NCBI GenBank assembly: GCA_035705945.1
Contig: DASSVR010000025.1
Span: forward strand, 11,508 to 75,507
Reading direction: 5' to 3'
Length of the DNA: 64,000 bases
Source of the DNA: Solirubrobacterales bacterium
GTDB taxonomy: Bacteria > Actinomycetota > Thermoleophilia > Solirubrobacterales > 70-9
The notes beneath the pieces are model-generated. The model did no database searches. It was not told where the DNA came from and saw only the letters and a list, made by a program, of their open reading frames with translations. The position numbers and the translations under genes were made by a program. The stretch's first letter is position 1, and each line of letters opens with the position of its first letter. This document shows positions 2,221 to 60,333 of this stretch, piece after piece.

Positions 2221-4881
2221 CTAGCAGGGCAAGCCGATCCGCGGCTTGCTCAGCTGCGTGCGCCCGTTCTGGGCGCGGAGGCGGATCTCGACGCGTGGTC
2301 TGACCTTGCAGAGGTTGCGGCTGTTTTCGATCAGGCCGCGTTTGCCGCCGAAGAGGTTCATCTGGAAGCTGGTGACGGGGGCATCGGGGAGGCCGAGGAA
2401 GCGGGTGCGGACCCTCGAGGTGCCTTTCTTCTGCACCGAGTCGATGAAGCCGACGAGGATGATCCGCAGCTGGCCGCGCAGGTCGGCGACGATGTCGGGT
2501 AGTTCGCGGGCGCCGCCGTTACTGCGGAAGTAGACGTTGCCGCTCAGCGGTTGGTCGAGCAGCGGGCTCTTCGCGGTGACCCTGCCGAGGATCGATTTCG
2601 GCGGGCAGGCCTCGGCCGCGAACTGCACCCGGGTGCAGGGGTTGTTGATGTGGGCGTTGTCGATGAACTGTGAGGCGGGCAGGCTCACGGTGGCGTGGGC
2701 GGTGTTGGCCTGGCCCGGTTTCTGGGTCAGCTTCGCCCGCACCGCCGGGTTGCCGGTGCGTTTGGTCGAGCCTTTGAAGGCGAGGCGCAGCTTCGGTTTG
2801 TAGGGGAGCTTGGCGCAGTCGCTGGCCCGGAAGACGCTTGAGGGCTCGGCGATCGCGCCGGTAGTGGCGGTGACCGTGGCGGTGATCTTCTTGGTGGCGC
2901 AGCTCGTCGGGTTGAGGGTGAATTCGGGGCGGTCGACCAGGACCCGGATCTCGCGGTAGGCGATCGGTACCCCTTCGAGGATCTGCGGCAGCGGATCGGT
3001 GGTGATCGTCGCCAGGGCGGTTTCGGGGTCGACGTTGATCGCGGCGCGGTTGACCACCACGCCGAGGTCGAAGGGTCCGGCCTGGGCGGGGACCACCGAG
3101 ACGACCGAGTAGGGCGCTCCTTTGTAGGGGCCGGCCAGGTAGGCGGTGGGGGTGGGCTTGCCGGGCTGCGGGATCCAGAGCGGCGCACCGCCCACGCCCG
3201 AGGAGGCGGCGAGGCTGCCGAGCCTGGAGCCGAGCGGGCAGGCGCCGGTGGCCGCCGCGACCTCGGGGCAGAGCTCCACCCCGGCGAGCTTCGCGAGGAG
3301 GCCCTTCGGCATGTGCAGGGCGATCGTCTGCGGGTTGGCTTCGCCGTCAGAGCGGGTCAGGGTGAAGGCGAAGGGGGTGTATTGGCCGCCGGAGGGGACG
3401 AGGCTGCCGGCGGCGAGCTGCGGGGAGAAGCCGCCCTTGCCGCAGCCCTGGGTGACGTGCAGCGGGGTCTGGCCTTCGAGCGGCGGGGTCCCCGACCAGG
3501 GGGTGAAGGAGTAGTCGATCAGGTAGGTGCCGCAGGCGGCCGGGGTGGCGATCGGCGCCCGCGGCCCGCCGAAGACGTTCAGCCGCAGCGCTGAGACCGG
3601 CACCTGGGGCAGGCCGCCGAGGGTTTCGATCCCGTCGAAGACGGTGGTGATCTGGCCGCTCAGCGGGTTTGCTTCGATCTCCGCCGGCAGCTTCAGGTGG
3701 ACGCCCTGGTCGTCGGCGACGACCCAGAAGCCGAAGAGGCGCCCGGGCTCTGGGGTGCGCTGGTAGACCGAGCCGTGCAGGGTCTCCTCGAGGGCCGGCA
3801 CCTCGGCTTCGATCGTGCCGATCTTCGCTGCATCGGGGCACTCGGCGGCGACGTTCTCGCCGAAGTGGACCTCTTCGGCCGAGCAGGCCTCGAGGCCGTC
3901 GGCGGCGGCGGGGTTGATCGAGAAGCCGGCCGGCAGGCTCACCCGGGCGCTCTTCAGGGTCGAGGTGGCGTTGCCCTGGGGGGATTCGTTCTGGGGGATC
4001 ACGAGTTCGGTGTCGATCCCCGTGGGGGCGGCGGCCTCGGGGTTGGTCAGATGGGCGCTGAAGGTGGGGGCGAATTTGACGTTGCCGCAGCCGGTGATCT
4101 GCGGGAAGGGGGCGCTCATCGTCGAGGGCTGATCGGGCAGCTGGTAGCTGCGGGCGGTGACCACGACTTCGCGTTTCAGGCTGCAGTCGGTCGGGTTGGA
4201 GATGAACGGGACTTCCGGCGTCGATACCGGTCTGCCGCCCGGCGGGGTTTCCCCGTTCACCACCTCCATCGGGGTGACCCGCTCTTCGTCGTGCTCGGAG
4301 GAGGCGGGGATCCCCCAGACCGTCGTCGTCGCTTCGGAGAGGCCGGTCACCGAGGGCAGGCTCTCGGCGGTGGCGATGACGCTGTAGTCGGTGGGGTCGA
4401 TGCGGACGTTGACGAAGGCCGGGTAGGCGCCGGCCATCAGGCCGAAGCGGGCGACGATGTCGGTGCCTTTCGGCGCCACCATGTTGTAGAAGGGCTCGTT
4501 GAAGACGAAGACGTAGGGCTGCAGGGTGCGCACCGCGGAGATCCCCACCTGGGACTCGAACGGGCAGGCGCTGGTTTCCGGCGCGGTGCCGAGCTGCTCG
4601 GCGGTGCAGCGGGGGATCGCCTGCGGGTTGCCGATCACCCCGGGCGGCAGCTCAATCTCGATGTCCTTGGCGGCGGCGTAGGGGCTGTTGCCTTTGCGGG
4701 TCAGGGCGACGCCGATCGTCATGTCGGCGTGGGCGCCGGCCTGTTTGTCGCTGAGGCTGACGAAGACCGATTCGATCGCGAATTTGTCGAATTCGTCTTC
4801 GCCCGAGGCGGGCGCGGCGAGGGCGGCGGCGAGGGCGAGCGCCGTGGCAGCGAGGACGGCGATCCGGCGCGCGGCGCTCAT
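2221..4881 (-). CDS. Large secreted protein, unknown function (886 aa)
   Basis: ORF 2221..5310 trimmed to the ATG at 4881 (MSAARRIAVLAATALALAAALAAPASGEDE, a signal peptide). This ATG overlaps the upstream stop as ATGA. The part of the ORF upstream of it is Arg-rich out-of-frame overlap with the preceding gene. Confidence 0.8.
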   Translation of the reverse strand: MSAARRIAVLAATALALAAALAAPASGEDEFDKFAIESVFVSLSDKQAGAHADMTIGVALTRKGNSPYAAAKDIEIELPPGVIGNPQAIPRCTAEQLGTAPETSACPFESQVGISAVRTLQPYVFVFNEPFYNMVAPKGTDIVARFGLMAGAYPAFVNVRIDPTDYSVIATAESLPSVTGLSEATTTVWGIPASSEHDEERVTPMEVVNGETPPGGRPVSTPEVPFISNPTDCSLKREVVVTARSYQLPDQPSTMSAPFPQITGCGNVKFAPTFSAHLTNPEAAAPTGIDTELVIPQNESPQGNATSTLKSARVSLPAGFSINPAAADGLEACSAEEVHFGENVAAECPDAAKIGTIEAEVPALEETLHGSVYQRTPEPGRLFGFWVVADDQGVHLKLPAEIEANPLSGQITTVFDGIETLGGLPQVPVSALRLNVFGGPRAPIATPAACGTYLIDYSFTPWSGTPPLEGQTPLHVTQGCGKGGFSPQLAAGSLVPSGGQYTPFAFTLTRSDGEANPQTIALHMPKGLLAKLAGVELCPEVAAATGACPLGSRLGSLAASSGVGGAPLWIPQPGKPTPTAYLAGPYKGAPYSVVSVVPAQAGPFDLGVVVNRAAINVDPETALATITTDPLPQILEGVPIAYREIRVLVDRPEFTLNPTSCATKKITATVTATTGAIAEPSSVFRASDCAKLPYKPKLRLAFKGSTKRTGNPAVRAKLTQKPGQANTAHATVSLPASQFIDNAHINNPCTRVQFAAEACPPKSILGRVTAKSPLLDQPLSGNVYFRSNGGARELPDIVADLRGQLRIILVGFIDSVQKKGTSRVRTRFLGLPDAPVTSFQMNLFGGKRGLIENSRNLCKVRPRVEIRLRAQNGRTQLSKPRIGLPC

Positions 4882-7800
4882 CGGCGGCCCCCCTGCGCTC
4901 GGCGCTGGCGTGGTTTGTGTTTTTTGACGCAGATGACCTTGCCGGCGCGTTTGACCTTGCGCTTGCCCTTGCCGCAGCGCTTGGGTTTGGGACTCGGCTT
5001 GGCGCCCAGCGCGAGGGTCTGCACCGCGAAGGGCGCCGGCGGCGGGCTCATCCCCGGGCGGCAGCCTTCGCCCGCGCATTCTTCTTTCACCGCTTCGGCG
5101 AAGCCGCCGCCGACCCGGGCGTCGTAGATCGAGGGCGTCGCGTCGACGTCTGAGCCGGTCAGGAGCTCGGCGCTGAAGAAGAAGACGTCCTCGCCCGTCG
5201 GGCTCACCGCCCAGAGGAATTCGTTGCGAAGGCTCTGGGGGGAGGAGATCAGGTAGAGGCAGCCCTCGGGTGCCGGCGGAGCGCAGCTGCCGACGCCCTC
5301 GGCCTCCCACTCATAGACGTCCTTGAAGCCGTCTGAGTCGCCGCCGACCAGGGGCTCGCTCGACTCGAAGAAGGCGCGCTGGCCGTCGGCGCGCAGGTTC
5401 TCGATCCAGGCCTGCGAGAAGGAGAGGGGGATGTTTTCCTCCCGTCTTTCGGTCTGCAGGGTCGCGTCTTCGTTAGGCGGGGCGCCGGTCGGGTTGCAGG
5501 AGAGGCACCAAAGCTCCCCGGCGGCGGAGTCGTAGCGGTAGATCTGCGCTTTTTCGGCGGGGTCGTAGTCGCTCAGCTGGGCGCGTGATTTGAACAGGAG
5601 GACGCTGCCGTCGGCGCTGGCGCGGGCGGGGACCTTGCCGAAGCGCCCGGGGAACTGGGGGTTTGCGGCATCGACCCAGAGGCCGAGCCCGTCGACGGTT
5701 TCGATCCCCGAGAGGACTTCCCCTTCGACGTCGCGGTCGGTGAGCGTGGCGACGAAGCTGACCTGCCCCTCCTCGGAGAGGTAGAGGTTCTGCGCCGCGG
5801 CCTGGGGTTCGTCGCCCTCGGGGTTGGGGCCCGATCCCGAGATCGCGGTCTCCGAGACGAAGTAGGCGGCTGACCCCCCCTGGGCGAGGAAGACCGGGAC
5901 GGCGTCGCCCGTTTCGCTGAACTCGATCACTTCCTCGCTGCTCGCGTCGAAGGCCTTCAGGTCGCCGTCTTCATCGACATAGAGGATCCGCCCGCCGCCT
6001 TCGGCGAGGCCGGCGTAGGTGATCCCTTCGCCGATCTCGAAGGTCTCTTCGTTTTGGTAGCGCAGGTAGAGCGTCGTGCCGACTTTGAAGGCGACGAGCT
6101 CGCCGTCGAGCGAGGCGCCCATGTAGAAGGCGTCTTCGCCGGCGCCGAGGGGGACCTCGCCGGGCAGCAGCGAGACCACCTTGGTTTCCCGTTCGCCGGC
6201 TTCGGGGCCGGGGACGCGGTCATAGATCGCGATCGTGCCGTCCGGCGCGGCGGTGGGCTCGAGCTGGATCGCCGGCGTGTTGCCGCCCGAGGTGAAGACG
6301 ATGTGGCCGCCGCCCCCTGAGATCAGCCGGCCCACCGCCCGGGGGTCGGTGCCGAGGCTGCCCTGGCCGATCAGCTCCGAGTGGCCGTCGGGGAAGCGCA
6401 CGTAGTTGGTCGGCTCCCCTCCCACCACCGCCGTGCCCGCCACCTCCGCGACCCAGAAGCTGTGGCCCTGGTCGGGCGAGCCGGTGCCGGCGATCACCGA
6501 TTTCGCCTCGGCGCCGGTGGGGCCGATGTAGGTGGTCTGCCAGCCCGCTTCGGTGCGGGTCGAGAGGTAGGGGTCGCCGAGGAAGGAGCCGGTGCCGGGG
6601 AAGCCCGGGATCGAGCCACCCTCGACCTTGAACGGCACCGCTTCGCCCCCCGGGGAGACCTGGCGGATCGTGAAGGAGTTGATCTCGCGGGTGGTGCCGA
6701 TCGGCGCCCGGCCGTTGGTGTCGGGCGGCGTCACCAGCTCATAGGCGCGGCAGTCGGGCAGAAGCGCCGAGAGGCCGGTGCGCAGCAGCGGGTTCGGGCA
6801 GAATTCCGGCGGCTCGACGGGGAAGCTCGGGTAGGTGGCGAAGCCCGCCTGGGCTTCGTCGTCCCCCAGAGAGTTCTCGGCGAAGACCCGGAAGCGGTAG
6901 CTCCTCCCCGCTTCGAGGCCCGTCAGCGCCGCCGAGACCTCGAGGTCGAGGTTGCCGGCCGGGAGCGTCCCTTCGCCGGCGAGCGTCGCCCCTTCGAAGG
7001 GGTCTTTGGCTTCTTCTTCGTTTTGCGCCGCCAGCTGGGCGGTGATGTAGTGGAGGGTGTAGGTGGTTTCGAGGTTGCGGGGGTTGACCTTGGCCACCAG
7101 TTCGGCTTCGGTTTCGCTGACGTTGGTGGCTTCGGGCGCTTTCACCTCCGGCTCGTCTTCGGTGACTTCCTCGAAGGCGAAGGAGTGGCCGGTCCCGGTT
7201 TTGTGGGAGGGGACGTAGAGGTTGCCCTTGCTCAGGCTGGTGGACCCGTTGTCGACCCCGATCTGCGCCCCGATCTCCCCGTCGAAGCCGCCTTGGATTT
7301 TGATCTCCGTCACGAATTCGCCGTCGGCGGTGAACTCGTAGAGTTTCTTGTTTTCCGTGTCGTGGGCGAACAGGTGGCCAGTGTTTTCGTCCACTGCCAG
7401 CGAGATGAAGTTGCCGATGTCTTCCCCCGGCAGCGCCGACTCTTCGATCGTGTCGACTTTTTCGTATTCGCCCGGCGGCGGCCCCACCACGCTCGTCAGG
7501 TCGAAGATGTCGATCCGCCTGATTTCGAGACCGCCCGGTTCGAAGCTCGCGTAGAGCCGGCCGCGTGAATCGTCCACCGCCACCCCGACGCCCCGCGCCA
7601 GAGCCGTTCGGACTTTTACGTTCCCTTCGGCGGCGGAGGTGTACTCGGTCACACCATCGCCCCTGGAGTTGACGAACAGGTGGTCGTTATCGGCGTTGAT
7701 CGCCAAGGCGGACGGTCGCTGGCCCGGGTCGGGGGCGAAGGCCACCGGATCGCTGCAGTATTCGATGTTGCCGGCTTCCGGTTCGTAGGGAGCGCACGGC

Positions 7801-8348
7801 GTGTAGCGGAGGATTTCCTTGCCGGGTGAAATGAAGACCCCGGCATATAGAACACCCTGGCTATCGACCGCGAGCGACATCGGGCCGAAGTTGAACGGGG
7901 CGTCGAGCACGATCTCCTCGATGAAGAGGCCGGACGGGTCGAAGATGTCGATCCGCCCTTGCGTGCCTTCGTCGTTTTTCCCGAAGACGCCGACGTAGAT
8001 GTTGCCGTGGAAGTCGGTGGCCACCGCCCTCGGGTCGTCGAACTTTTCGAGAGGATGATCGACCCCCGCCACCCCGGGCGGAATTGGACACAGCCCGGGG
8101 TCGGGGACTTCGTCGATCGCCGAGGTGCTGCAGTCGCCGGTCAGAGAGAGTTCCGGGTCGAAGACGCGTTCGCCTTCCGCCGCCAGCGCGGTCGGAACAG
8201 CCATGACCGCAAGCACGAGCCCGACCGCAAAGGTCCAGCGCAGGATGAAAGAACTTCTCCCGCCGCTCTTGCCTATCGCGTCCCGATTCAATGTAAGCCC
8301 CCCAATGATTCGTTCCCTGATAAGACCTCTGCTATTCCTCGTCAGCAC
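4878..8348 (-). CDS. Very large secreted multi-domain protein with NHL-like propeller, FN3-like module, PD40/TolB-like propeller and a Cys-containing polybasic tail
   Basis: The 1156-aa ORF has an N-terminal hydrophobic segment (FAVGLVLAVMAVPTALAAEGE). It contains repeated DxxGNIYV / VDSQGVLYA / VDDSRGRLYA-type blades, then an FN3-like stretch (GLEAGRSYRFRVFAENSLG), then DVYEWE / SIYDAR PD40-like motifs. The annotated start is GTG 8348. An alternative TTG at 8291 is preceded by GGGGGG. Confidence 0.75.
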   Translation of the reverse strand: MLTRNSRGLIRERIIGGLTLNRDAIGKSGGRSSFILRWTFAVGLVLAVMAVPTALAAEGERVFDPELSLTGDCSTSAIDEVPDPGLCPIPPGVAGVDHPLEKFDDPRAVATDFHGNIYVGVFGKNDEGTQGRIDIFDPSGLFIEEIVLDAPFNFGPMSLAVDSQGVLYAGVFISPGKEILRYTPCAPYEPEAGNIEYCSDPVAFAPDPGQRPSALAINADNDHLFVNSRGDGVTEYTSAAEGNVKVRTALARGVGVAVDDSRGRLYASFEPGGLEIRRIDIFDLTSVVGPPPGEYEKVDTIEESALPGEDIGNFISLAVDENTGHLFAHDTENKKLYEFTADGEFVTEIKIQGGFDGEIGAQIGVDNGSTSLSKGNLYVPSHKTGTGHSFAFEEVTEDEPEVKAPEATNVSETEAELVAKVNPRNLETTYTLHYITAQLAAQNEEEAKDPFEGATLAGEGTLPAGNLDLEVSAALTGLEAGRSYRFRVFAENSLGDDEAQAGFATYPSFPVEPPEFCPNPLLRTGLSALLPDCRAYELVTPPDTNGRAPIGTTREINSFTIRQVSPGGEAVPFKVEGGSIPGFPGTGSFLGDPYLSTRTEAGWQTTYIGPTGAEAKSVIAGTGSPDQGHSFWVAEVAGTAVVGGEPTNYVRFPDGHSELIGQGSLGTDPRAVGRLISGGGGHIVFTSGGNTPAIQLEPTAAPDGTIAIYDRVPGPEAGERETKVVSLLPGEVPLGAGEDAFYMGASLDGELVAFKVGTTLYLRYQNEETFEIGEGITYAGLAEGGGRILYVDEDGDLKAFDASSEEVIEFSETGDAVPVFLAQGGSAAYFVSETAISGSGPNPEGDEPQAAAQNLYLSEEGQVSFVATLTDRDVEGEVLSGIETVDGLGLWVDAANPQFPGRFGKVPARASADGSVLLFKSRAQLSDYDPAEKAQIYRYDSAAGELWCLSCNPTGAPPNEDATLQTERREENIPLSFSQAWIENLRADGQRAFFESSEPLVGGDSDGFKDVYEWEAEGVGSCAPPAPEGCLYLISSPQSLRNEFLWAVSPTGEDVFFFSAELLTGSDVDATPSIYDARVGGGFAEAVKEECAGEGCRPGMSPPPAPFAVQTLALGAKPSPKPKRCGKGKRKVKRAGKVICVKKHKPRQRRAQGGRR

Positions 8349-8487
8349 CTTATCTCATTGCCCAAGCTGTCTAGGCCCCGGAGAAGGATCCGGTCCGCTG
8401 TCGGCGGTGCAGTCAAGAGCAGTTGAGTTACTAAAAACTGAACTATCGTTGCGGCGGAGTGAGTCTAGAGCTCCCTTTCAGCGGAAT

Positions 8488-52955: not shown

Positions 52956-53855
52956 TCAGGCTTCGGCGGCCTTGAACCTCGCCCGCCACTCGTCGCGGTC
53001 GAACTGGGCGGGCTCGGTCTCGGCGAGGAAGCGTTCGAGGACGGCGATGAAGCGGCCGGGGCGCTCGAGCTGGGGGATGTGACCGGTGTTCTCGAAGATC
53101 TCGAGGCGGCTGCCGGGGAGCTGCTCGTGGGTGGCACGGCCGTGGTCGGCGGGGATGATCGGGTCGTTCTCGCCCCAGACGATCAGGAGCGGCAGCGCCT
53201 CGGCGAGGTAGAGCTTGTCGAGGGCGGCGACGCGTTGGCCCTCGGTTCCGACCACCGATCGAAGGGTTGCGATGAAGGCCTTGCGGCGGGCCGGGTCGGT
53301 CAGCGTCCCAAACCCGCGCGTCACCTCCTCGAGGTCCGCGTTCGGGCGCAGGCCGGCGAGGCCTAGCCCGCGGCCGATCACCGATCCGATCCGGCTTCCC
53401 ACGTTCGCGGTCGCCGTGATGAACAGCTCCGCTCCGGGCAGCGCCGCCGCCCGCAGCACGGGGCTCACGTCCCGCCCGAGCCCGCCGCTGGAGACGAGCG
53501 CCAGCCGCTCGACCATCTCCGGGAACTGGTAGGTGAACTGCATCGCGACGCCGCCGCCGAGGGAGTGGCCGACGAGGGTCGCCCGGTCGTGCCCGAGGGC
53601 CAGCATCAGATCCCGGAGGGAGCTGGCGAGGGCGCCGAGCGAGTAGTCGCCGCCGCCGGGCGCCGATGCGCCGTGGCCGGGGAAGTCTGGGGCGATCACC
53701 GTGTGGTTGATCGCCAGCGGCTCGATCACCGCTTCCCAGTTGGCACACGTCCCCGCCATCCCGTGGATCAGGAGGAGAACCGGGCCTGAGCCGGCTTCGA
53801 CGAAGTTCATCGGCCGTCCGTGGACATCGATCGTCCTCGACCTCGGCTCGGCCAT
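52956..53855 (-). CDS. Alpha/beta-fold hydrolase
   Basis: HGMAGTC and the nucleophile elbow GHSLGGG are present. The start was chosen at MAEPRS, while the ORF maximum is 53897. Confidence 0.75.
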   Translation of the reverse strand: MAEPRSRTIDVHGRPMNFVEAGSGPVLLLIHGMAGTCANWEAVIEPLAINHTVIAPDFPGHGASAPGGGDYSLGALASSLRDLMLALGHDRATLVGHSLGGGVAMQFTYQFPEMVERLALVSSGGLGRDVSPVLRAAALPGAELFITATANVGSRIGSVIGRGLGLAGLRPNADLEEVTRGFGTLTDPARRKAFIATLRSVVGTEGQRVAALDKLYLAEALPLLIVWGENDPIIPADHGRATHEQLPGSRLEIFENTGHIPQLERPGRFIAVLERFLAETEPAQFDRDEWRARFKAAEA

Positions 53856-53959
53856 GTTCAGCCGCGTCACTTTCCCTGCCACGGGTGGAACGTACACCTC
53901 CTGCCGGTTGCGGTATCCCAGCGGGGCGGATCTTTGACGAATTTCAATACTGTCGCGCT

Positions 53960-54775
53960 GTGAACGAGGCCCAGGGAGGCACCACGCAGGACAAGCGCCC
54001 GCCCCGCGGCGCCCTGATCGTCGTCGCGGTCGGTCTCGTCGCCTGCGTCGTCGCCGCCCTCGCCGCCACCGGCAAGGGAGAGGGCGAAGCGGCCCCGCTC
54101 GAATGGGTGCAGGCGGGCGAGGGACCCGACTCGGGGGTGGTGTCCATCCCGGGCGGCAACGGCGAGATGCGGCTGACCGATACCCGCATCCGCGCCACCG
54201 GCACCAACTTCAGCGGCTACTCGCTGTTCATCGTCGGGACCCGACTCACCGTCTCGGCTGGCTCGTTGATCGCCGACGGCCGCGTCCTCTGCGCCGTCAA
54301 GGCCCGGAAAGGGACCGAAATCGGGCAGAGCGGCGGCGACTTGAGGGGGACCTATCCGCGCTCCTCCGACGCCGGCATCTACAGCCAGGAAGTGCCGGAC
54401 ACCGTGCTGATGCAGTTCAGCGCCCGTGGCGCGGAAATGGCCTCGCTCGAAGTGCCCGACCGGCCGCAGAGCTTCACCACCGAAAAGGGCGTCAAGCTCG
54501 AATGGCCCGAGTACCGGGTCGGCGAAGAGCGCCTCAAGTACCTCATCACCGGGAACCCGAAGCAGGAGCTGGTGCTTCCCTTCTTCACGGTCTGGAAGAC
54601 GACCGACATCCCCTCTGCCAAGCTCAGATGCACGCTTGAAACCAGCGCCGGCACCTCGACCGTGCGCACCGAGGTCGCGCTGGCGAAGCGCTCGCCGCCG
54701 ATCGACGAAGAGGCCGAAGAGCAGAAAGCCCAGGAACGCGACGAACGGGAAGAGGAAGAAGGCGAAGGGGGTTAG
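53960..54775 (+). CDS. Membrane-anchored hypothetical protein with an acidic C-terminal tail
   Basis: ORF 53885..54775 trimmed to the GTG at 53960. There is a single TM helix (ALIVVAVGLVACVVAALAA). The tail is DEEAEEQKAQERDEREEEEGEGG. No family was recognised. Confidence 0.5.
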   Translation: MNEAQGGTTQDKRPPRGALIVVAVGLVACVVAALAATGKGEGEAAPLEWVQAGEGPDSGVVSIPGGNGEMRLTDTRIRATGTNFSGYSLFIVGTRLTVSAGSLIADGRVLCAVKARKGTEIGQSGGDLRGTYPRSSDAGIYSQEVPDTVLMQFSARGAEMASLEVPDRPQSFTTEKGVKLEWPEYRVGEERLKYLITGNPKQELVLPFFTVWKTTDIPSAKLRCTLETSAGTSTVRTEVALAKRSPPIDEEAEEQKAQERDEREEEEGEGG

Positions 54776-56605: not shown

Positions 56606-57336
56606 GAAATTTCCGTCGCGGCCGCGTCCCAGATCCGCCAGGGCGCGCGACCGGCCGTCCAGAGATCGTTGAGGACGATCGCGTCCTTGTAGGTGTCCAT
56701 GCAGTCCCAGAAGCCCCCATGGCGGAAGGCGCGCAGCTGCCCTTCGGCGGCCAGGCGCGCCAGCGGCTCCCGCTCGAGCACGCTGCTCTCGCCCAGGTGG
56801 TCGAGGACGCCCGGCTCGAAGCAGAAGAAGCCCCCGTTGATCCAGTGCTCGCTGCGCGGCTTCTCGACGAAGCCGGTCACCTCGTCGCCATCCAGCTCCG
56901 CGACGCCCCACTGCAGGTCGGGGCGGACGACGGTGACGCTGCCAAGCGCACCATGGCCTTCGTGGAACTCCAGCAATGCGTCGAGGTCGACGTCGGCGAC
57001 GCCGTCGGCGTAGGTGGCGCAGAACCGCTCGCCGCCAACTCGCTCGGCCAGCGCCGCCACTCGCCCGCCGGTCGGCGTGTCGAGCCCGGTGTCGACGCAC
57101 TCCACCCGCACTCCATCCGGCCACCGCTCGCGCCCCGCGAATTCCTCGATCGCCTCCCCCATGTAGCCGGTTGCGAGGAGGAAGCGATCGAACCCCTGCG
57201 CGGCGTAGATCTGGATCACATGCCAGAGGATCGGACGCCCGCCGATCTCGACCAGCGCCTTCGGCACCGACTCGGTCCGCTCGCGCAGCCGCGTCCCGCG
57301 ACCGCCGCAGAGGATGACTACCGGAGGTTTCAGCAA
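56602..57336 (-). CDS. rfbF: Glucose-1-phosphate cytidylyltransferase
   Basis: VVILCGGRGTRLRERTESVPKALVEIGGRPILWHVIQ ... GGFWDCMDTYKD ... GRAPWRIW closely follows the RfbF pattern. The only plausible start is TTG at 57336, which overlaps the upstream stop. Confidence 0.8.
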   Translation of the reverse strand: MLKPPVVILCGGRGTRLRERTESVPKALVEIGGRPILWHVIQIYAAQGFDRFLLATGYMGEAIEEFAGRERWPDGVRVECVDTGLDTPTGGRVAALAERVGGERFCATYADGVADVDLDALLEFHEGHGALGSVTVVRPDLQWGVAELDGDEVTGFVEKPRSEHWINGGFFCFEPGVLDHLGESSVLEREPLARLAAEGQLRAFRHGGFWDCMDTYKDAIVLNDLWTAGRAPWRIWDAAATEIS

Positions 57337-57605
57337 CCGCCGGCTACCGCGGGGAGGATCGTTACCTCGTCGCCATCGCTGATCGACGTCTCGAGGCCGT
57401 CTTGGAAGCGGATGTCCTCGCCGGAGACGTAGACGTTGACGAAGCGGCGCAGGTCGCCGTCCTGGGTGATCCGGTCGCGGAGGCCGCCGTGGGCGTCGAA
57501 GACCGCGTCGAGGACCTCGCCGACGGTCGCGCCCTCGACCTCCAGCTCGGCCTGGCCGTCGGTGGCGGCGCGCAGCTGGGTCGGGATCTTCACGGTGACT
57601 GACAT
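57330..57605 (-). CDS. CysO/MoaD/ThiS-family sulfur-carrier protein ending in GG-Cys
   Basis: The 91-aa protein reads MSVTVKIPTQLRAATDGQAELEVEGATVGEVL ... FVNVYVSGEDIRFQDGLETSISDGDEVTILPAVAGGC. This is very similar, from memory, to mycobacterial CysO (...VTILPAVAGG). Confidence 0.8.
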   Translation of the reverse strand: MSVTVKIPTQLRAATDGQAELEVEGATVGEVLDAVFDAHGGLRDRITQDGDLRRFVNVYVSGEDIRFQDGLETSISDGDEVTILPAVAGGC

Positions 57606-57769
57606 TGGCCGCCGATTCTACGACTGAGTGCGCCTGGGGGCGCGCAGGGTCGAGCAGATCGAGGACGCAGGGTGCAGCCCTTGCTGGAGGCAAGGGCAAA
57701 CCCGAGGACGATGAGATGCGAAGGCGATGCGCGTCATCCAGGTGTGCTCAGTCGTGGGATTGGTGGCCA

Positions 57770-59002
57770 CTAGGCGGGTACCTCCTGGCGGAACTCGGCC
57801 TCGAAGCTGTCGAGGCTGGGGTCGATCTCGTGCATCTGGAACGTATCGCGGGTCGCGTCCAGGGTCTTCAGGCCCTCGCCGGTGATGTAGACGACCACCT
57901 TCTCGCCGTCTGCGATCTCCCCACGTTCCGCGAGCTTGCGAAGAACCCCCACGGTGACGCCGCCAGCGGTCTCGGTGAAGATCCCGGTGGTCTCCGCCAG
58001 CAGCTTGATCCCTTCGCGGATCTCGGCATCGGTGACGGCGTCGATGCCGCCGCCGGTACGGCGCGCCTGCTCGACCGCGTAGGGACCATCGGCTGGGTCG
58101 CCGATCGCGAGGCTCTTGGCGATCGTCTCCGGCCGCTGCGGCTTGCAGACTTCCCAGCCTTCGGCGAAGGCGGTCGCCACCGGGCTGCAGCCGTCCGCTT
58201 GGGCGCCGTTGAAGACCGGTTGCGACCCGGAGACGAGCCCGAGGTCGAGCCACTCCTGGAATCCGCGCCCGAGCTTGGTGAAGAGCGAGCCCGAGGCGAT
58301 CGGGCAGACCACCCGGTCCGGCAGCTTCCAGCCCAGCTGCTCGACGGTCTCGTAAGCGAGCGTCTTCGAGCCCTCCGCGTAGTAGGGCCGCAGGTTGACG
58401 TTGACGAATGCCCACGGGCGCGTCTCGGCGAGCTGGGTGCAGAGCCGGTTGACGTCGTCGTAGTTGCCGCGCACGCCGACAAGGTTGGTGCCGTAGACGC
58501 CGGTCGCGAGCAGCTTCTGCTCCTCGAGGTTGGCGGGGACGAAGACGTAGCTCTCGAGGCCGGCCGCGGCGGCGTGGGCGGCAACGGCGTTGGCGAGGTT
58601 GCCGGTCGAGGCGCAGGCGACGGTCTCGAAGCCGAGCTCCTTAGCCTTGGCGATCGCCACGGCGACGACCCGGTCCTTGAAGGAGTGGGTCGGGTTGGCG
58701 GCGTCGTTCTTGATGTGGATCTCGGCGTCGACCCCAAGCCGCTCGGCGAGCCGGTCGGCGCGCAGCAGCGGCGTCAGGCCCGGCTCCAGCGGATCGCCAG
58801 GTCTGCCGGCGAAGGGCAGGAAATCTGCGTATCGCCAGATCCCCTGCGACCCGGCCTGGATCCGCCGCTTCGCCGACGCCGCGTCGAGGTCGCCCAGGTC
58901 GTAGGAGACCTCGAGCGGGCCGAAGCAGTTCTCGCAGACGTAACTGGCGTCCAGCTCGTACGCCGTCCCGCACTCCTTGCACTTCAAGCTCTCAACTGAC
59001 AT
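57770..59002 (-). CDS. Threonine synthase-family PLP enzyme with an N-terminal zinc ribbon (MetM-like candidate)
   Basis: ORF trimmed to MSVESLKCKECGTAYELDASYVCENC. The PLP-lysine motif is NPTHSFKDR. It lies directly downstream of a SAM-I riboswitch. Confidence 0.8.
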   Translation of the reverse strand: MSVESLKCKECGTAYELDASYVCENCFGPLEVSYDLGDLDAASAKRRIQAGSQGIWRYADFLPFAGRPGDPLEPGLTPLLRADRLAERLGVDAEIHIKNDAANPTHSFKDRVVAVAIAKAKELGFETVACASTGNLANAVAAHAAAAGLESYVFVPANLEEQKLLATGVYGTNLVGVRGNYDDVNRLCTQLAETRPWAFVNVNLRPYYAEGSKTLAYETVEQLGWKLPDRVVCPIASGSLFTKLGRGFQEWLDLGLVSGSQPVFNGAQADGCSPVATAFAEGWEVCKPQRPETIAKSLAIGDPADGPYAVEQARRTGGGIDAVTDAEIREGIKLLAETTGIFTETAGGVTVGVLRKLAERGEIADGEKVVVYITGEGLKTLDATRDTFQMHEIDPSLDSFEAEFRQEVPA

Positions 59003-59027
59003 CCGATCCTCTCTTCGACTCTCAACG

Positions 59028-59057
59028 AAAAAACCTCCGCCTTTCGTGGGGCAGAGG
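59028..59057 (-). terminator. Intrinsic terminator (expression platform of the SAM riboswitch)
   Basis: The minus strand reads CCUCUGCC-CCACGAAA-GGCGGAGG followed by UUUUUU. It lies 25 nt upstream of the ATG at 59002. Confidence 0.8.
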
Positions 59058-59073
59058 TCCGATCGGACGTCCC

Positions 59074-59188
59074 CCACATCTTCCAGGCCTTCAACTGCAC
59101 CTGCTGGAGTTGGCACCTGCCTCGAACTTGCGTCCGAGATGGTTGCCGGGGCTTCACTGGGCCAGTCCCTCCACCCCTCTTGATGTGG
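59074..59188 (-). promoter_or_regulatory. SAM-I (S-box) riboswitch aptamer
   Basis: The minus strand reads CCACAUCAAGAGGGGUGGAGGGACUGGCCCAGUGAAGCCCCGGCAACC...GGUGCCAACUCCAGCAG...GAAGAUGUGG. This matches the conserved S-box core, and P1 is CCACAUC/GAUGUGG. Confidence 0.9.
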
Positions 59189-59325
59189 CGCTTATGTGGA
59201 GGGGAAGATACTTGACAAACCGCAAGTTGTCCATCTCCGAGACGCATCGCACACGCTCTTCCGCACGCCCGTCTAACCTAGGCGCACGATGAACCCGCTG
59301 CGCGACGAGACGATGGGCCGAAACG

Positions 59326-60333
59326 ATGCCGAACCTTCCGAAACCGAGGCTGCGGCGGCCTGGCCGGCGCGGCGAGCTCGTCTCTCGGCCGGCGGCGCCT
59401 GAGCCGCAGAAGCCCAACGTCGAGCAGATCGATTCGCACGGACTGCGTTGGGTCAACATCGAGTGGCCGGGATCGCTGGAGCGGAGCTGGCTGGAGGAGC
59501 ACTTCCAGTTCCACGCTCTCGACCTCGAGGACGTGCTCTCGCGCAATCAGCGGCCGAAGATCGACGTCTACGACGACTACCTCTTCATCGTCCTCCACCT
59601 GCCGGTCTTCGACCCCCAGGCAGGTCGGCTCGGGGCGGGCGAGCTCGACGTCTTCGTCGGCCCCGACTACGTGGTGACGATCCCCAACCTGCCGCTGCAG
59701 CCGGTCGAGTACCTGTTCGAGCGTTGCCGGGCCAAAGAGGAGCTGCGCGAACAGCTCTTCTCCCGCGGCTCGGGCTACCTGCTCTACCGCCTAGTCGACG
59801 ACAGCTTCGACTACTGCTTCCCGATGCTGCGCAAGATCGGCAACAAGCTCGACGCGCTCGAGGACGACATCTTCGAAGAGCGCGCCGAGGAGGTGGTCCG
59901 CGACATCTCCAACGTCAAGCAGGAGATCATCAACTTCCGCAAGGTGATCCGGCCGCAGCGGCCGGTGCTGCGCGACCTCGAGAAGGTGAAGCAGCGCTAC
60001 CTCGCCTCCGACCTCGACCTCGAGATCTACTTCGACGACATCGTCGACGCACACGAGCGGATCTGGGACATGCTCGAGAACTACAAGGAGGTCGCCCAGG
60101 CGCTCGAGGAGACCAACGAGTCGCTGATCTCCCACCGCCTCAACGACATCCTCCGCGCGCTGACGGCGATGAGCGTGATCATCCTGCCGCTCACCCTGAT
60201 CGCCAGTGTGATGGGGATGAACACCTGGGTGCCGGACGAGGGCGAGGAGACCGGGTTCTTCGTCGTCCTCGGGGTGATGGCGCTGGTGCTGTTCGGGCTC
60301 GTTGCCTACTTCCGCAGGCGCCGCTGGCTCTGA
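59326..60333 (+). CDS. corA: Magnesium/cobalt transporter CorA
   Basis: The GMN motif lies in SVMGMNTWVP, flanked by two C-terminal TM helices. Confidence 0.9.
   Translation: MPNLPKPRLRRPGRRGELVSRPAAPEPQKPNVEQIDSHGLRWVNIEWPGSLERSWLEEHFQFHALDLEDVLSRNQRPKIDVYDDYLFIVLHLPVFDPQAGRLGAGELDVFVGPDYVVTIPNLPLQPVEYLFERCRAKEELREQLFSRGSGYLLYRLVDDSFDYCFPMLRKIGNKLDALEDDIFEERAEEVVRDISNVKQEIINFRKVIRPQRPVLRDLEKVKQRYLASDLDLEIYFDDIVDAHERIWDMLENYKEVAQALEETNESLISHRLNDILRALTAMSVIILPLTLIASVMGMNTWVPDEGEETGFFVVLGVMALVLFGLVAYFRRRRWL

Follow-up and report, generated by a model that had tools for sequence, protein, structure and literature searches.

We analyzed a 64,000-nt stretch of a Solirubrobacterales bacterium genome (assembly GCA_035705945.1, contig DASSVR010000025.1, positions 11,508 to 75,507; hereafter, the window) and focused on a minus-strand locus in which an S-adenosylmethionine (SAM)-type riboswitch leader precedes the gene of a pyridoxal 5'-phosphate (PLP) enzyme of the threonine synthase (ThrC) family and the gene of a small sulfur carrier protein. 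The two proteins resemble MetM and MetO, the components of a homocysteine-forming pathway described for Streptomyces albulus. In window coordinates, the locus comprises the following features:

59205..59233, minus strand: weak sigma-70-like promoter candidate (TGGACA, 17-nt spacing, TATCTT), about 15 nt 5' of the aptamer
59073..59189, minus strand: SAM-I (S-box) riboswitch aptamer, located with the RF00162 covariance model
59046..59077, minus strand: predicted alternative antiterminator helix, in which the P1 3' arm GUGGGG pairs with CCCCAC in the 5' half and loop of the terminator
59028..59060, minus strand: intrinsic terminator with stem ACCUCUGCC / GGCGGAGGU, an 8-nt loop and a U6 tract
57770..59002, minus strand: MetM-like PLP enzyme of the ThrC family, 410 aa from ATG, with an N-terminal CxxC...CxxC zinc ribbon and catalytic Lys109
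57606..57769, minus strand: palindromic intercistronic element of 163/164 nt, between the enzyme stop TAG and the carrier ATG
57330..57605, minus strand: MetO/CysO-like sulfur carrier, 91 aa, of the ThiS/MoaD beta-grasp fold, with the C-terminus ...PAVAGG-C

The riboswitch was matched by RF00162 over the full length of the model (positions 1-108 of 108) with 83.3 bits and an E-value of 3.6e-18, well above the gathering score of 44.4 bits, and helices P1-P4 of the SAM-I aptamer were recovered in the minimum free energy fold. An initial annotation, made from the sequence alone, had placed an S-box aptamer before the ThrC-family gene and a strong terminator after the aptamer. Both were confirmed with coordinates differing by only 1-3 nt, the latter as a hairpin at 59060..59031 with a T6 (U6) run at 59033..59028. 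This hairpin, located between the aptamer and the open reading frame (ORF) of the enzyme, was the single terminator-like site in 57000..59600. When the leader was folded from the P1 3' arm onward without the terminator 3' arm, the antiterminator reached -17.9 kcal/mol, and in the predicted folds its helix excludes both P1 and the terminator. Since the P1 3' arm pairs inside the 5' half of the terminator, as in the classic S-box antiterminator, the SAM-I leader is predicted to be an OFF switch with an antiterminator/terminator expression platform that responds to its ligand. The OFF polarity is as expected for a gene of methionine or SAM biosynthesis. The promoter candidate matches 9 of 12 consensus positions and is the sole such site in 57000..59600, where 0.1 would be expected by shuffles; it is a consensus match only.

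The 410-aa ThrC-family ORF of the initial annotation was likewise recovered, with matches to PF00291 (240 bits) and to the thrC equivalog model TIGR00260 (286 bits against a cutoff of 167). Five other threonine-synthase models were missed, including PRK08197, the closest full-length one (266.5 bits against a cutoff of 303). The match to the cysteate-synthase model TIGR03844 was weak (76 bits against a cutoff of 325), and the cysKM model TIGR01136 gave 38 bits against a cutoff of 344, placing the enzyme outside the CysK/CysM family. A deposited 410-aa protein from a Solirubrobacterales metagenome-assembled genome (MAG) is 100% identical to the enzyme. We compared the enzyme with four crystallized threonine synthases, those of B. 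subtilis (6CGQ), A. aeolicus (2ZSJ), T. thermophilus (1UIM) and M. tuberculosis (2D1F), with which it shares 36-39% identity (35-38% over the entire catalytic domain). The Schiff-base motif SFKDR is kept, K109 of the enzyme aligning to ThrC K61. Four other motifs are replaced:

canonical STGNT, window protein STGNL
canonical N-SVNPxRxEG, window protein NVNLRPYYAEG
canonical GNAGN, window protein ASGSL
canonical GLKD, window protein GLKT

The replaced motifs hold residues T88, N154/S155, R160 and N188 of the T. thermophilus enzyme: T88 corresponds to L136 and R160 to Y208, the N154-S155 motif has become NVN, and the N188 motif has become ASGSL. We take T88, S155, R160 and N188 to be the substrate-phosphate site of T. 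thermophilus ThrC, in agreement with the residue numbers and identities in the alignment; a literature search on the roles of the ThrC pocket residues gave nothing relevant. Replacement of these phosphate-pocket motifs relative to all four crystallized enzymes supports the proposal of the initial annotation that the protein is a ThrC paralog.

To place the enzyme among its relatives, we searched 1.84 billion representatives exhaustively with HMMER, obtaining 1,823 proteins at E <= 1e-30, and compiled a 93-sequence alignment of full-length representatives, Micromonosporaceae proteins, translated loci and the ThrCs of the Protein Data Bank (PDB). A clade signature of L136, R205, Y208, A236 and T380, corresponding to ThrC T88, N, R160, G and D, was present in 63 of these 93 sequences, with identities as low as about 37%, and R205 is invariant in the clade. 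The ThrC signature was confined in this alignment to the PDB ThrCs and a single further protein (P0247). Judged by its active-site sequence, the enzyme belongs to a large clade distinct from canonical ThrC. The N-terminal zinc ribbon was considered as a second discriminator of the clade and rejected: P0247 combines the ribbon with the ThrC signature, so that the ribbon is not diagnostic. Three of the four ribbon cysteines (C8, C23 and C26) are invariant in a 17-sequence alignment of the clade. A Pfam 'NinF' match (28 bits, barely above the cutoff) spans only residues 7-31 of the enzyme (58912-58986, minus strand); as it covers just the CxxC...CxxC ribbon, we took it as a motif match and dismissed a relationship to phage NinF. 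A sequence search of the PDB gave no MetM-like structure, the matches being only ThrCs and a threonine dehydratase.

The carrier, described initially as a 91-aa CysO/MoaD-like protein after the enzyme, matched PF02597 (ThiS) with 60.8 bits, NF041918 (SAMP1) with 72.7 bits and TIGR01687 with 56 bits. Its best solved relatives are of the CysO type, namely 4N6E_B (E 1.9e-26) and M. tuberculosis CysO (3DWG_C; E 2.7e-22, full length), and the ILPAVAGG tail is common to the window carrier and the M. tuberculosis CysO of the CysM-CysO complex (3DWG). In the window, the terminal GG is capped by one Cys (...AGGC). Among 76 relatives, 68 carriers end in a free GG, and an extra residue is present in the others (Cys in three, Arg in three, Ala in two); the GG-Cys tail also occurs at loci L006, L012, L019 and L118. 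The scatter of a one-residue cap over lineages suggests either that maturation needs differ between close relatives or that an unspecific carboxypeptidase removes the cap. Its removal would have to precede adenylation and thiocarboxylation of the carrier. A look-up of the exact carrier sequence found no record.

We assessed the conservation of the module by scanning one genome for each GTDB species with a degenerate pattern, which yielded at least 599 loci; the comparisons that follow use the best 80. These comprise 61 loci from Thermoleophilia (64-93% identity to the window enzyme) and 19 from cyanobacteria (59-61% identity). The carrier gene lies directly downstream of the enzyme gene in all 76 loci for which downstream sequence was available, in Thermoleophilia and cyanobacteria alike, and the two genes often abut as TAGATG with a shared Shine-Dalgarno sequence. 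Such synteny over two phyla argues against a chance neighborhood. A SAM-I leader was detected upstream by nhmmer in 60 of the 61 Thermoleophilia loci, the remaining locus being truncated, and RF00162 matched upstream of all eight divergent Thermoleophilia loci tested (76-82 bits). No SAM-I leader was found before the cyanobacterial loci, either by nhmmer (0/19) or with Rfam (0/3), in agreement with the statement that Microcystis is without the riboswitch (PMC12172450). Cyanobacteria also retain a separate canonical threonine synthase, ThrC2 (PMC12172450).

The association of riboswitch and enzyme recurs in three actinobacterial orders. In Micromonospora coriariae (LT607412.1, L081, 9855-11577), a SAM-I riboswitch of 69.2 bits precedes a clade enzyme with 53% identity, and no carrier ORF is present in the 290-nt gap downstream of it; presumably, the Micromonosporaceae enzyme works with a carrier encoded elsewhere, for example CysO, or with sulfide. 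In Nonomuraea gerenzanensis, a riboswitch of 68.7 bits precedes an enzyme with 53% identity, and the gene of a 91-aa carrier with the tail ...PAVAGG starts after a gap of 24 nt; the same chromosome encodes, 9 Mb away, a separate canonical ThrC that is 65% identical to that of M. tuberculosis. The N. gerenzanensis record (NZ_LT559118.1, L082) is named 'plasmid I', is chromosome-sized at 11.85 Mb and has a gene table of 10 features; it served as our whole-genome test case. Among the Streptomyces records of the plasmid collection, only canonical thrC was seen. The nearest relatives returned by the protein search have at least 91% identity, and a search started from the Micromonosporaceae representative gave Micromonosporaceae only.

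A MetM/MetO route was reportedly established in Streptomyces albulus by Hasebe et al. in 2024 (Appl Environ Microbiol 90:e01247-24), as described in the papers that cite it. The initial annotation had mentioned a Streptomyces report of this type, and the report indeed exists: the pathway is described in PMC12172450, bioRxiv 10.1101/2024.10.14.618325 and bioRxiv 10.64898/2026.09.15.751699. In the account of the citing papers (PMC12172450), MetM is a ThrC homolog "often misannotated as such" that forms homocysteine from MetO-thiocarboxylate and O-phospho-L-homoserine (OPHS), Mec is a [MetO]-L-cysteine hydrolase, and MoeZ is a sulfur ligase; the same account places a SAM riboswitch upstream of S. 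albulus metM. The naming of Mec as a [MetO]-L-cysteine hydrolase would fit the GG-Cys tail of the window carrier. A system of this kind is thus already published, and it is already included in GapMind 2026; the present locus is a member from a new class, Thermoleophilia.

Taken together, the architecture of the locus, the OFF polarity of the leader, the altered active site, the strict linkage of enzyme and carrier, the separate ThrC of Nonomuraea and the recurrence of the riboswitch point to a module of the MetM/MetO type. We consider it highly probable that the locus is a SAM-repressed two-gene module for homocysteine synthesis, the catalysis being assigned by analogy. This reading builds on RNA elements, gene content, clade distinction and synteny that were shown in the analysis, and it supports the central proposal of the initial annotation that a ThrC paralog and a CysO-type carrier make homocysteine from OPHS under SAM control.

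From this assignment we infer the substrate, a gamma-replacement by the thiocarboxylate and a need for unlinked enzymes of the MoeZ and Mec type, and the module would be expected to operate as follows. At high SAM concentrations, ligand binding would stabilize P1 and leave the terminator free to form, aborting transcription, whereas at low SAM concentrations the P1 3' arm would build the antiterminator and both genes would be transcribed. The carrier would lose its extra C-terminal Cys, and enzymes of the MoeZ/Mec type, with genes in another part of the genome, would adenylate and sulfurate it. The enzyme would bind OPHS and eliminate phosphate to give a PLP-bound vinylglycine intermediate, as in ThrC. 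Lacking the phosphate-retaining pocket of ThrC, it would add no water at C-beta and would instead take up, at C-gamma, the thiocarboxylate at the carrier C-terminus. By analogy with the mycobacterial CysM/CysO system, an S-to-N acyl shift followed by hydrolysis, or a direct release, would then yield homocysteine and the regenerated carrier.

Several observations weigh against this reading. The enzyme passes the TIGR00260 cutoff, and all database names seen for it and its relatives are 'threonine synthase'. The only check on the role that we assign to the phosphate pocket is the residue numbering. The tie of the window enzyme to S. albulus MetM appears to run through the cyanobacterial clade members only, of which a Microcystis protein is 51.6% identical to MetM and is encoded beside a gene with 47% similarity to metO (PMC12172450). 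This Microcystis enzyme acted as a weak threonine synthase on OPHS in vitro and as a threonine deaminase, and it did not raise methionine in vivo; the sulfur donor assayed with it was Na2S, never a thiocarboxylated carrier (PMC12172450). The TIGR00260 match, the database names and the turnover of OPHS by the Microcystis homolog, along with the identity to the crystallized ThrCs over the whole catalytic domain, would suit a genuine threonine synthase, the riboswitch of which would tune the Thr/Met branch point at OPHS and the carrier of which would be an unrelated neighbor. We regard such a role as extremely improbable, given that the phosphate-pocket residues are replaced systematically across the clade, that the PRK08197 cutoff is missed, that the carrier is syntenic in 76 of 76 loci from two phyla, and that Nonomuraea and the cyanobacteria own a separate canonical ThrC. 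Moreover, SAM-OFF control would starve the cell of threonine at high SAM, which is the opposite of the logic found in plants, where SAM activates threonine synthase.

The identity of the substrate has to be weighed separately. The carrier is most like CysO proteins, cysteate synthase (to which the window enzyme has its weak TIGR03844 match) shows that ThrC paralogs can use O-phosphoserine, and some S-box riboswitches of Firmicutes control cysteine or sulfur-assimilation genes. A carrier-dependent sulfur transferase acting on another substrate, which would convert O-phosphoserine to cysteine as a ThrC-fold analog of CysM/CysO or would form some other thio-amino acid, would be consistent with these points. 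We nevertheless find it quite improbable, because both assayed members of the clade, S. albulus MetM (as portrayed in the citing papers) and the Microcystis enzyme, act on OPHS, and because the scores of the cysteate-synthase and cysKM models lie far below their cutoffs.

Further points against the MetM/MetO-type reading concern the sulfur donor. As the initial annotation had stated, the window is without an E1-like adenylyltransferase, a rhodanese or a JAMM protease; this holds for all plausible ORFs of the 64 kb, which we scanned for ThiF/MoeB-type E1, rhodanese and JAMM proteins. The same three functions are absent from the 25 most frequent Pfam families near the enzyme, in neighborhood scans that pooled 104 cyanobacterial ORFs (14 neighborhoods) and 127 Thermoleophilia ORFs (17 neighborhoods). 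Their absence from the frequent neighbors suggests a self-contained pair, for which the activating enzymes must be unlinked. In addition, the 163-nt insertion displaces the shared Shine-Dalgarno sequence from the carrier start, so that expression of the carrier in this genome is not assured. An enzyme that makes homocysteine from OPHS and free sulfide, next to a carrier with another purpose or with the part of an optional sulfur donor, would accommodate the lack of linked E1 or JAMM partners, the riboswitch-controlled Micromonospora enzyme without an adjacent carrier and a weakened translation of the carrier in the window genome. We judge this explanation very improbable in view of the strictly kept adjacency of enzyme and carrier, often with abutting TAGATG and a shared Shine-Dalgarno sequence. 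In other actinomycetes, MoeZ and Mec also lie apart from some of the carriers that they serve. With the Microcystis enzyme, Na2S led to only an unidentified product (PMC12172450).

The palindromic element between the two genes, which the initial annotation had missed, is an insertion. In the closest genomes (L001, L002, L003 and L029), the site is empty, TAG and ATG abut as TAGATG, and the enzyme gene has an AGGAGG Shine-Dalgarno sequence in its final codons. In the window, TAG and ATG are separated by a precise 163-nt insertion with a predicted fold of -72.7 kcal/mol (z = -4.4). Two other loci (L118 and L126) have the same junction and the same insertion with intact genes, L118 also with the riboswitch, which indicates an inherited, tolerated insertion rather than an artifact of assembly. 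The core hairpin, TTGCCCTTGCCNCCAGCAAGGGCT, was found in 46 soil-metagenome contigs. The window holds just one copy of the element, and about 1 Mb of sequence from the genome loci gave one more (L050:9-134); L083-L128 hold related copies. As we read the flanking peptides, further copies are located between S17/L14, S12/S7, L22/S3, L15/SecY and TruB/RibF and elsewhere; copies are co-directional with the upstream gene in 30 of 37 cases and with the downstream gene in 32 of 37.

When 37 copies were aligned, the core (50 nt) proved invariant, and covariation was seen along an outer stem reaching from the stop codon of the upstream gene to the start codon of the downstream one. Compensatory changes were found in 19 of the 29 pairs of this stem, and 92.5% of the cells were paired, as compared to 32-45% in slid controls. 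The covariation score was 0.40, against at most 0.11 in the controls, and none of 500 shuffles reached it. Five or six apparent subfamilies account for much of the covariation signal, and few of the pairs are G-U; a DNA-level inverted repeat, similar to miniature inverted-repeat transposable elements (MITE) or repetitive extragenic palindromes (REP), is therefore just as likely as an RNA-specific structure. The inserted element gave no Rfam match, its BLAST search against plasmids was empty, and so was a search of metagenomes with its terminal-repeat pattern. It is a tentative and rather unlikely proposal that the insert belongs to an undescribed family of structured intercistronic elements of soil Thermoleophilia, with a function on the RNA level beyond that of a passive MITE. 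If this were the case, the folded element would set the stop, the start and the upstream Shine-Dalgarno sequence side by side again, and it would be tolerated or used in tightly coupled operons (ribosomal-protein operons and metM-metO), affecting their coupling, processing or stability.

Downstream of the module, the carrier stop overlaps the likely TTG start (GGTTGCTGA; 57326-57340, minus strand) of a gene resembling those for glucose-1-phosphate cytidylyltransferases, and a sugar dehydratase/epimerase-like gene comes next. The scan of 57000..59600 showed no terminator-like site past the carrier. The SAM-controlled transcript may read through into the sugar-nucleotide genes. The locus is flanked by genes for CorA, HIT, phosphomannomutase, MBL and sugar-nucleotide functions, and the window as a whole is a housekeeping region with recA, ftsK, rnj, dapA, dapB, pnp, rpsO, ribF, truB and infB, as well as nusA, coaBC, gmk, carAB, pyrBC and pyrR. 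Within the 64-kb window, thrB, hom, metX/A/Y/B and a second thrC are absent. We considered the alpha/beta-hydrolase at 52959-54209 as a MetX candidate and rejected it, as it reached no curated cutoff and gave no MetX match. Two long minus-strand ORFs at 2224-5310 and 4881-8354, of about 1029 and 1158 codons, show a coding-like bias of GC content at third codon positions; neither has a Pfam match at E <= 1e-5, and their stop-to-stop ranges overlap by about 430 nt.

The locus would extend the MetM/MetO thiocarboxylate route to methionine into Thermoleophilia, a group of abundant and nearly uncultured soil actinobacteria in which the riboswitch-enzyme-carrier module is kept in dozens of species genomes. 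The uniform 'threonine synthase' labels would mislead metabolic reconstructions into predicting methionine auxotrophy or a duplicate thrC. The motifs STGNL, RPYYAEG, ASGSL and GLKT, combined with an adjacent carrier gene and a SAM riboswitch, provide a handle for re-annotation. The altered phosphate pocket also offers a hypothesis for how a ThrC scaffold may have switched from beta-hydroxylation to gamma-thiolation.

Among known systems, the window locus is most directly compared with S. albulus MetM/MetO, with which it shares, as far as the citing papers describe it, a ThrC-homologous enzyme, a ThiS/MoaD-type carrier, a SAM riboswitch 5' of the enzyme gene and the routine mislabeling of the enzyme as threonine synthase; the GG-Cys end of the window carrier would fit the Mec step. 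In contrast to S. albulus, the host is an uncultured Solirubrobacterales MAG of the class Thermoleophilia, mec and moeZ are not found nearby in the window, the two genes are parted by the 163-nt palindromic element, and the C-terminal GG is left uncapped in most of the Thermoleophilia and cyanobacterial carriers. The CysM/CysO/Mec/MoeZ system of M. tuberculosis (3DWG) has a carrier of the same family, and an O-phospho amino acid substrate and a thiocarboxylate sulfur donor are predicted for the window locus as well. However, CysM has the CysK/CysM fold, whereas the window enzyme is ThrC-like and its expected product is homocysteine rather than cysteine. With canonical ThrC (6CGQ, 2ZSJ, 1UIM and 2D1F), the enzyme has in common the fold-type II PLP domain, the SFKDR lysine motif and, probably, the OPHS substrate and the same initial elimination of phosphate; it differs in the replaced pocket motifs, the added zinc ribbon, the adjacent carrier and the control by a SAM riboswitch.

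Thiocarboxylate-dependent homocysteine synthesis by HcyS/HcyD/HcyF-MetY was reportedly described in Wolinella succinogenes by Krishnamoorthy and Begley. In that system as well, a protein thiocarboxylate donates the sulfur of homocysteine and the carrier needs C-terminal processing, but it relies on a fold-type I MetY and O-acetylhomoserine, with no ThrC homolog and no OPHS. The insert, for its part, resembles the MIRU, REP/BIME, ERIC and Correia-type repeats in being short, palindromic, co-transcribed, located between cistrons and mostly in sense orientation, and it is distinguished from MIRU/REP-type repeats by its own invariant core, its subfamily-specific outer stems and its low copy number in the sequence sampled.

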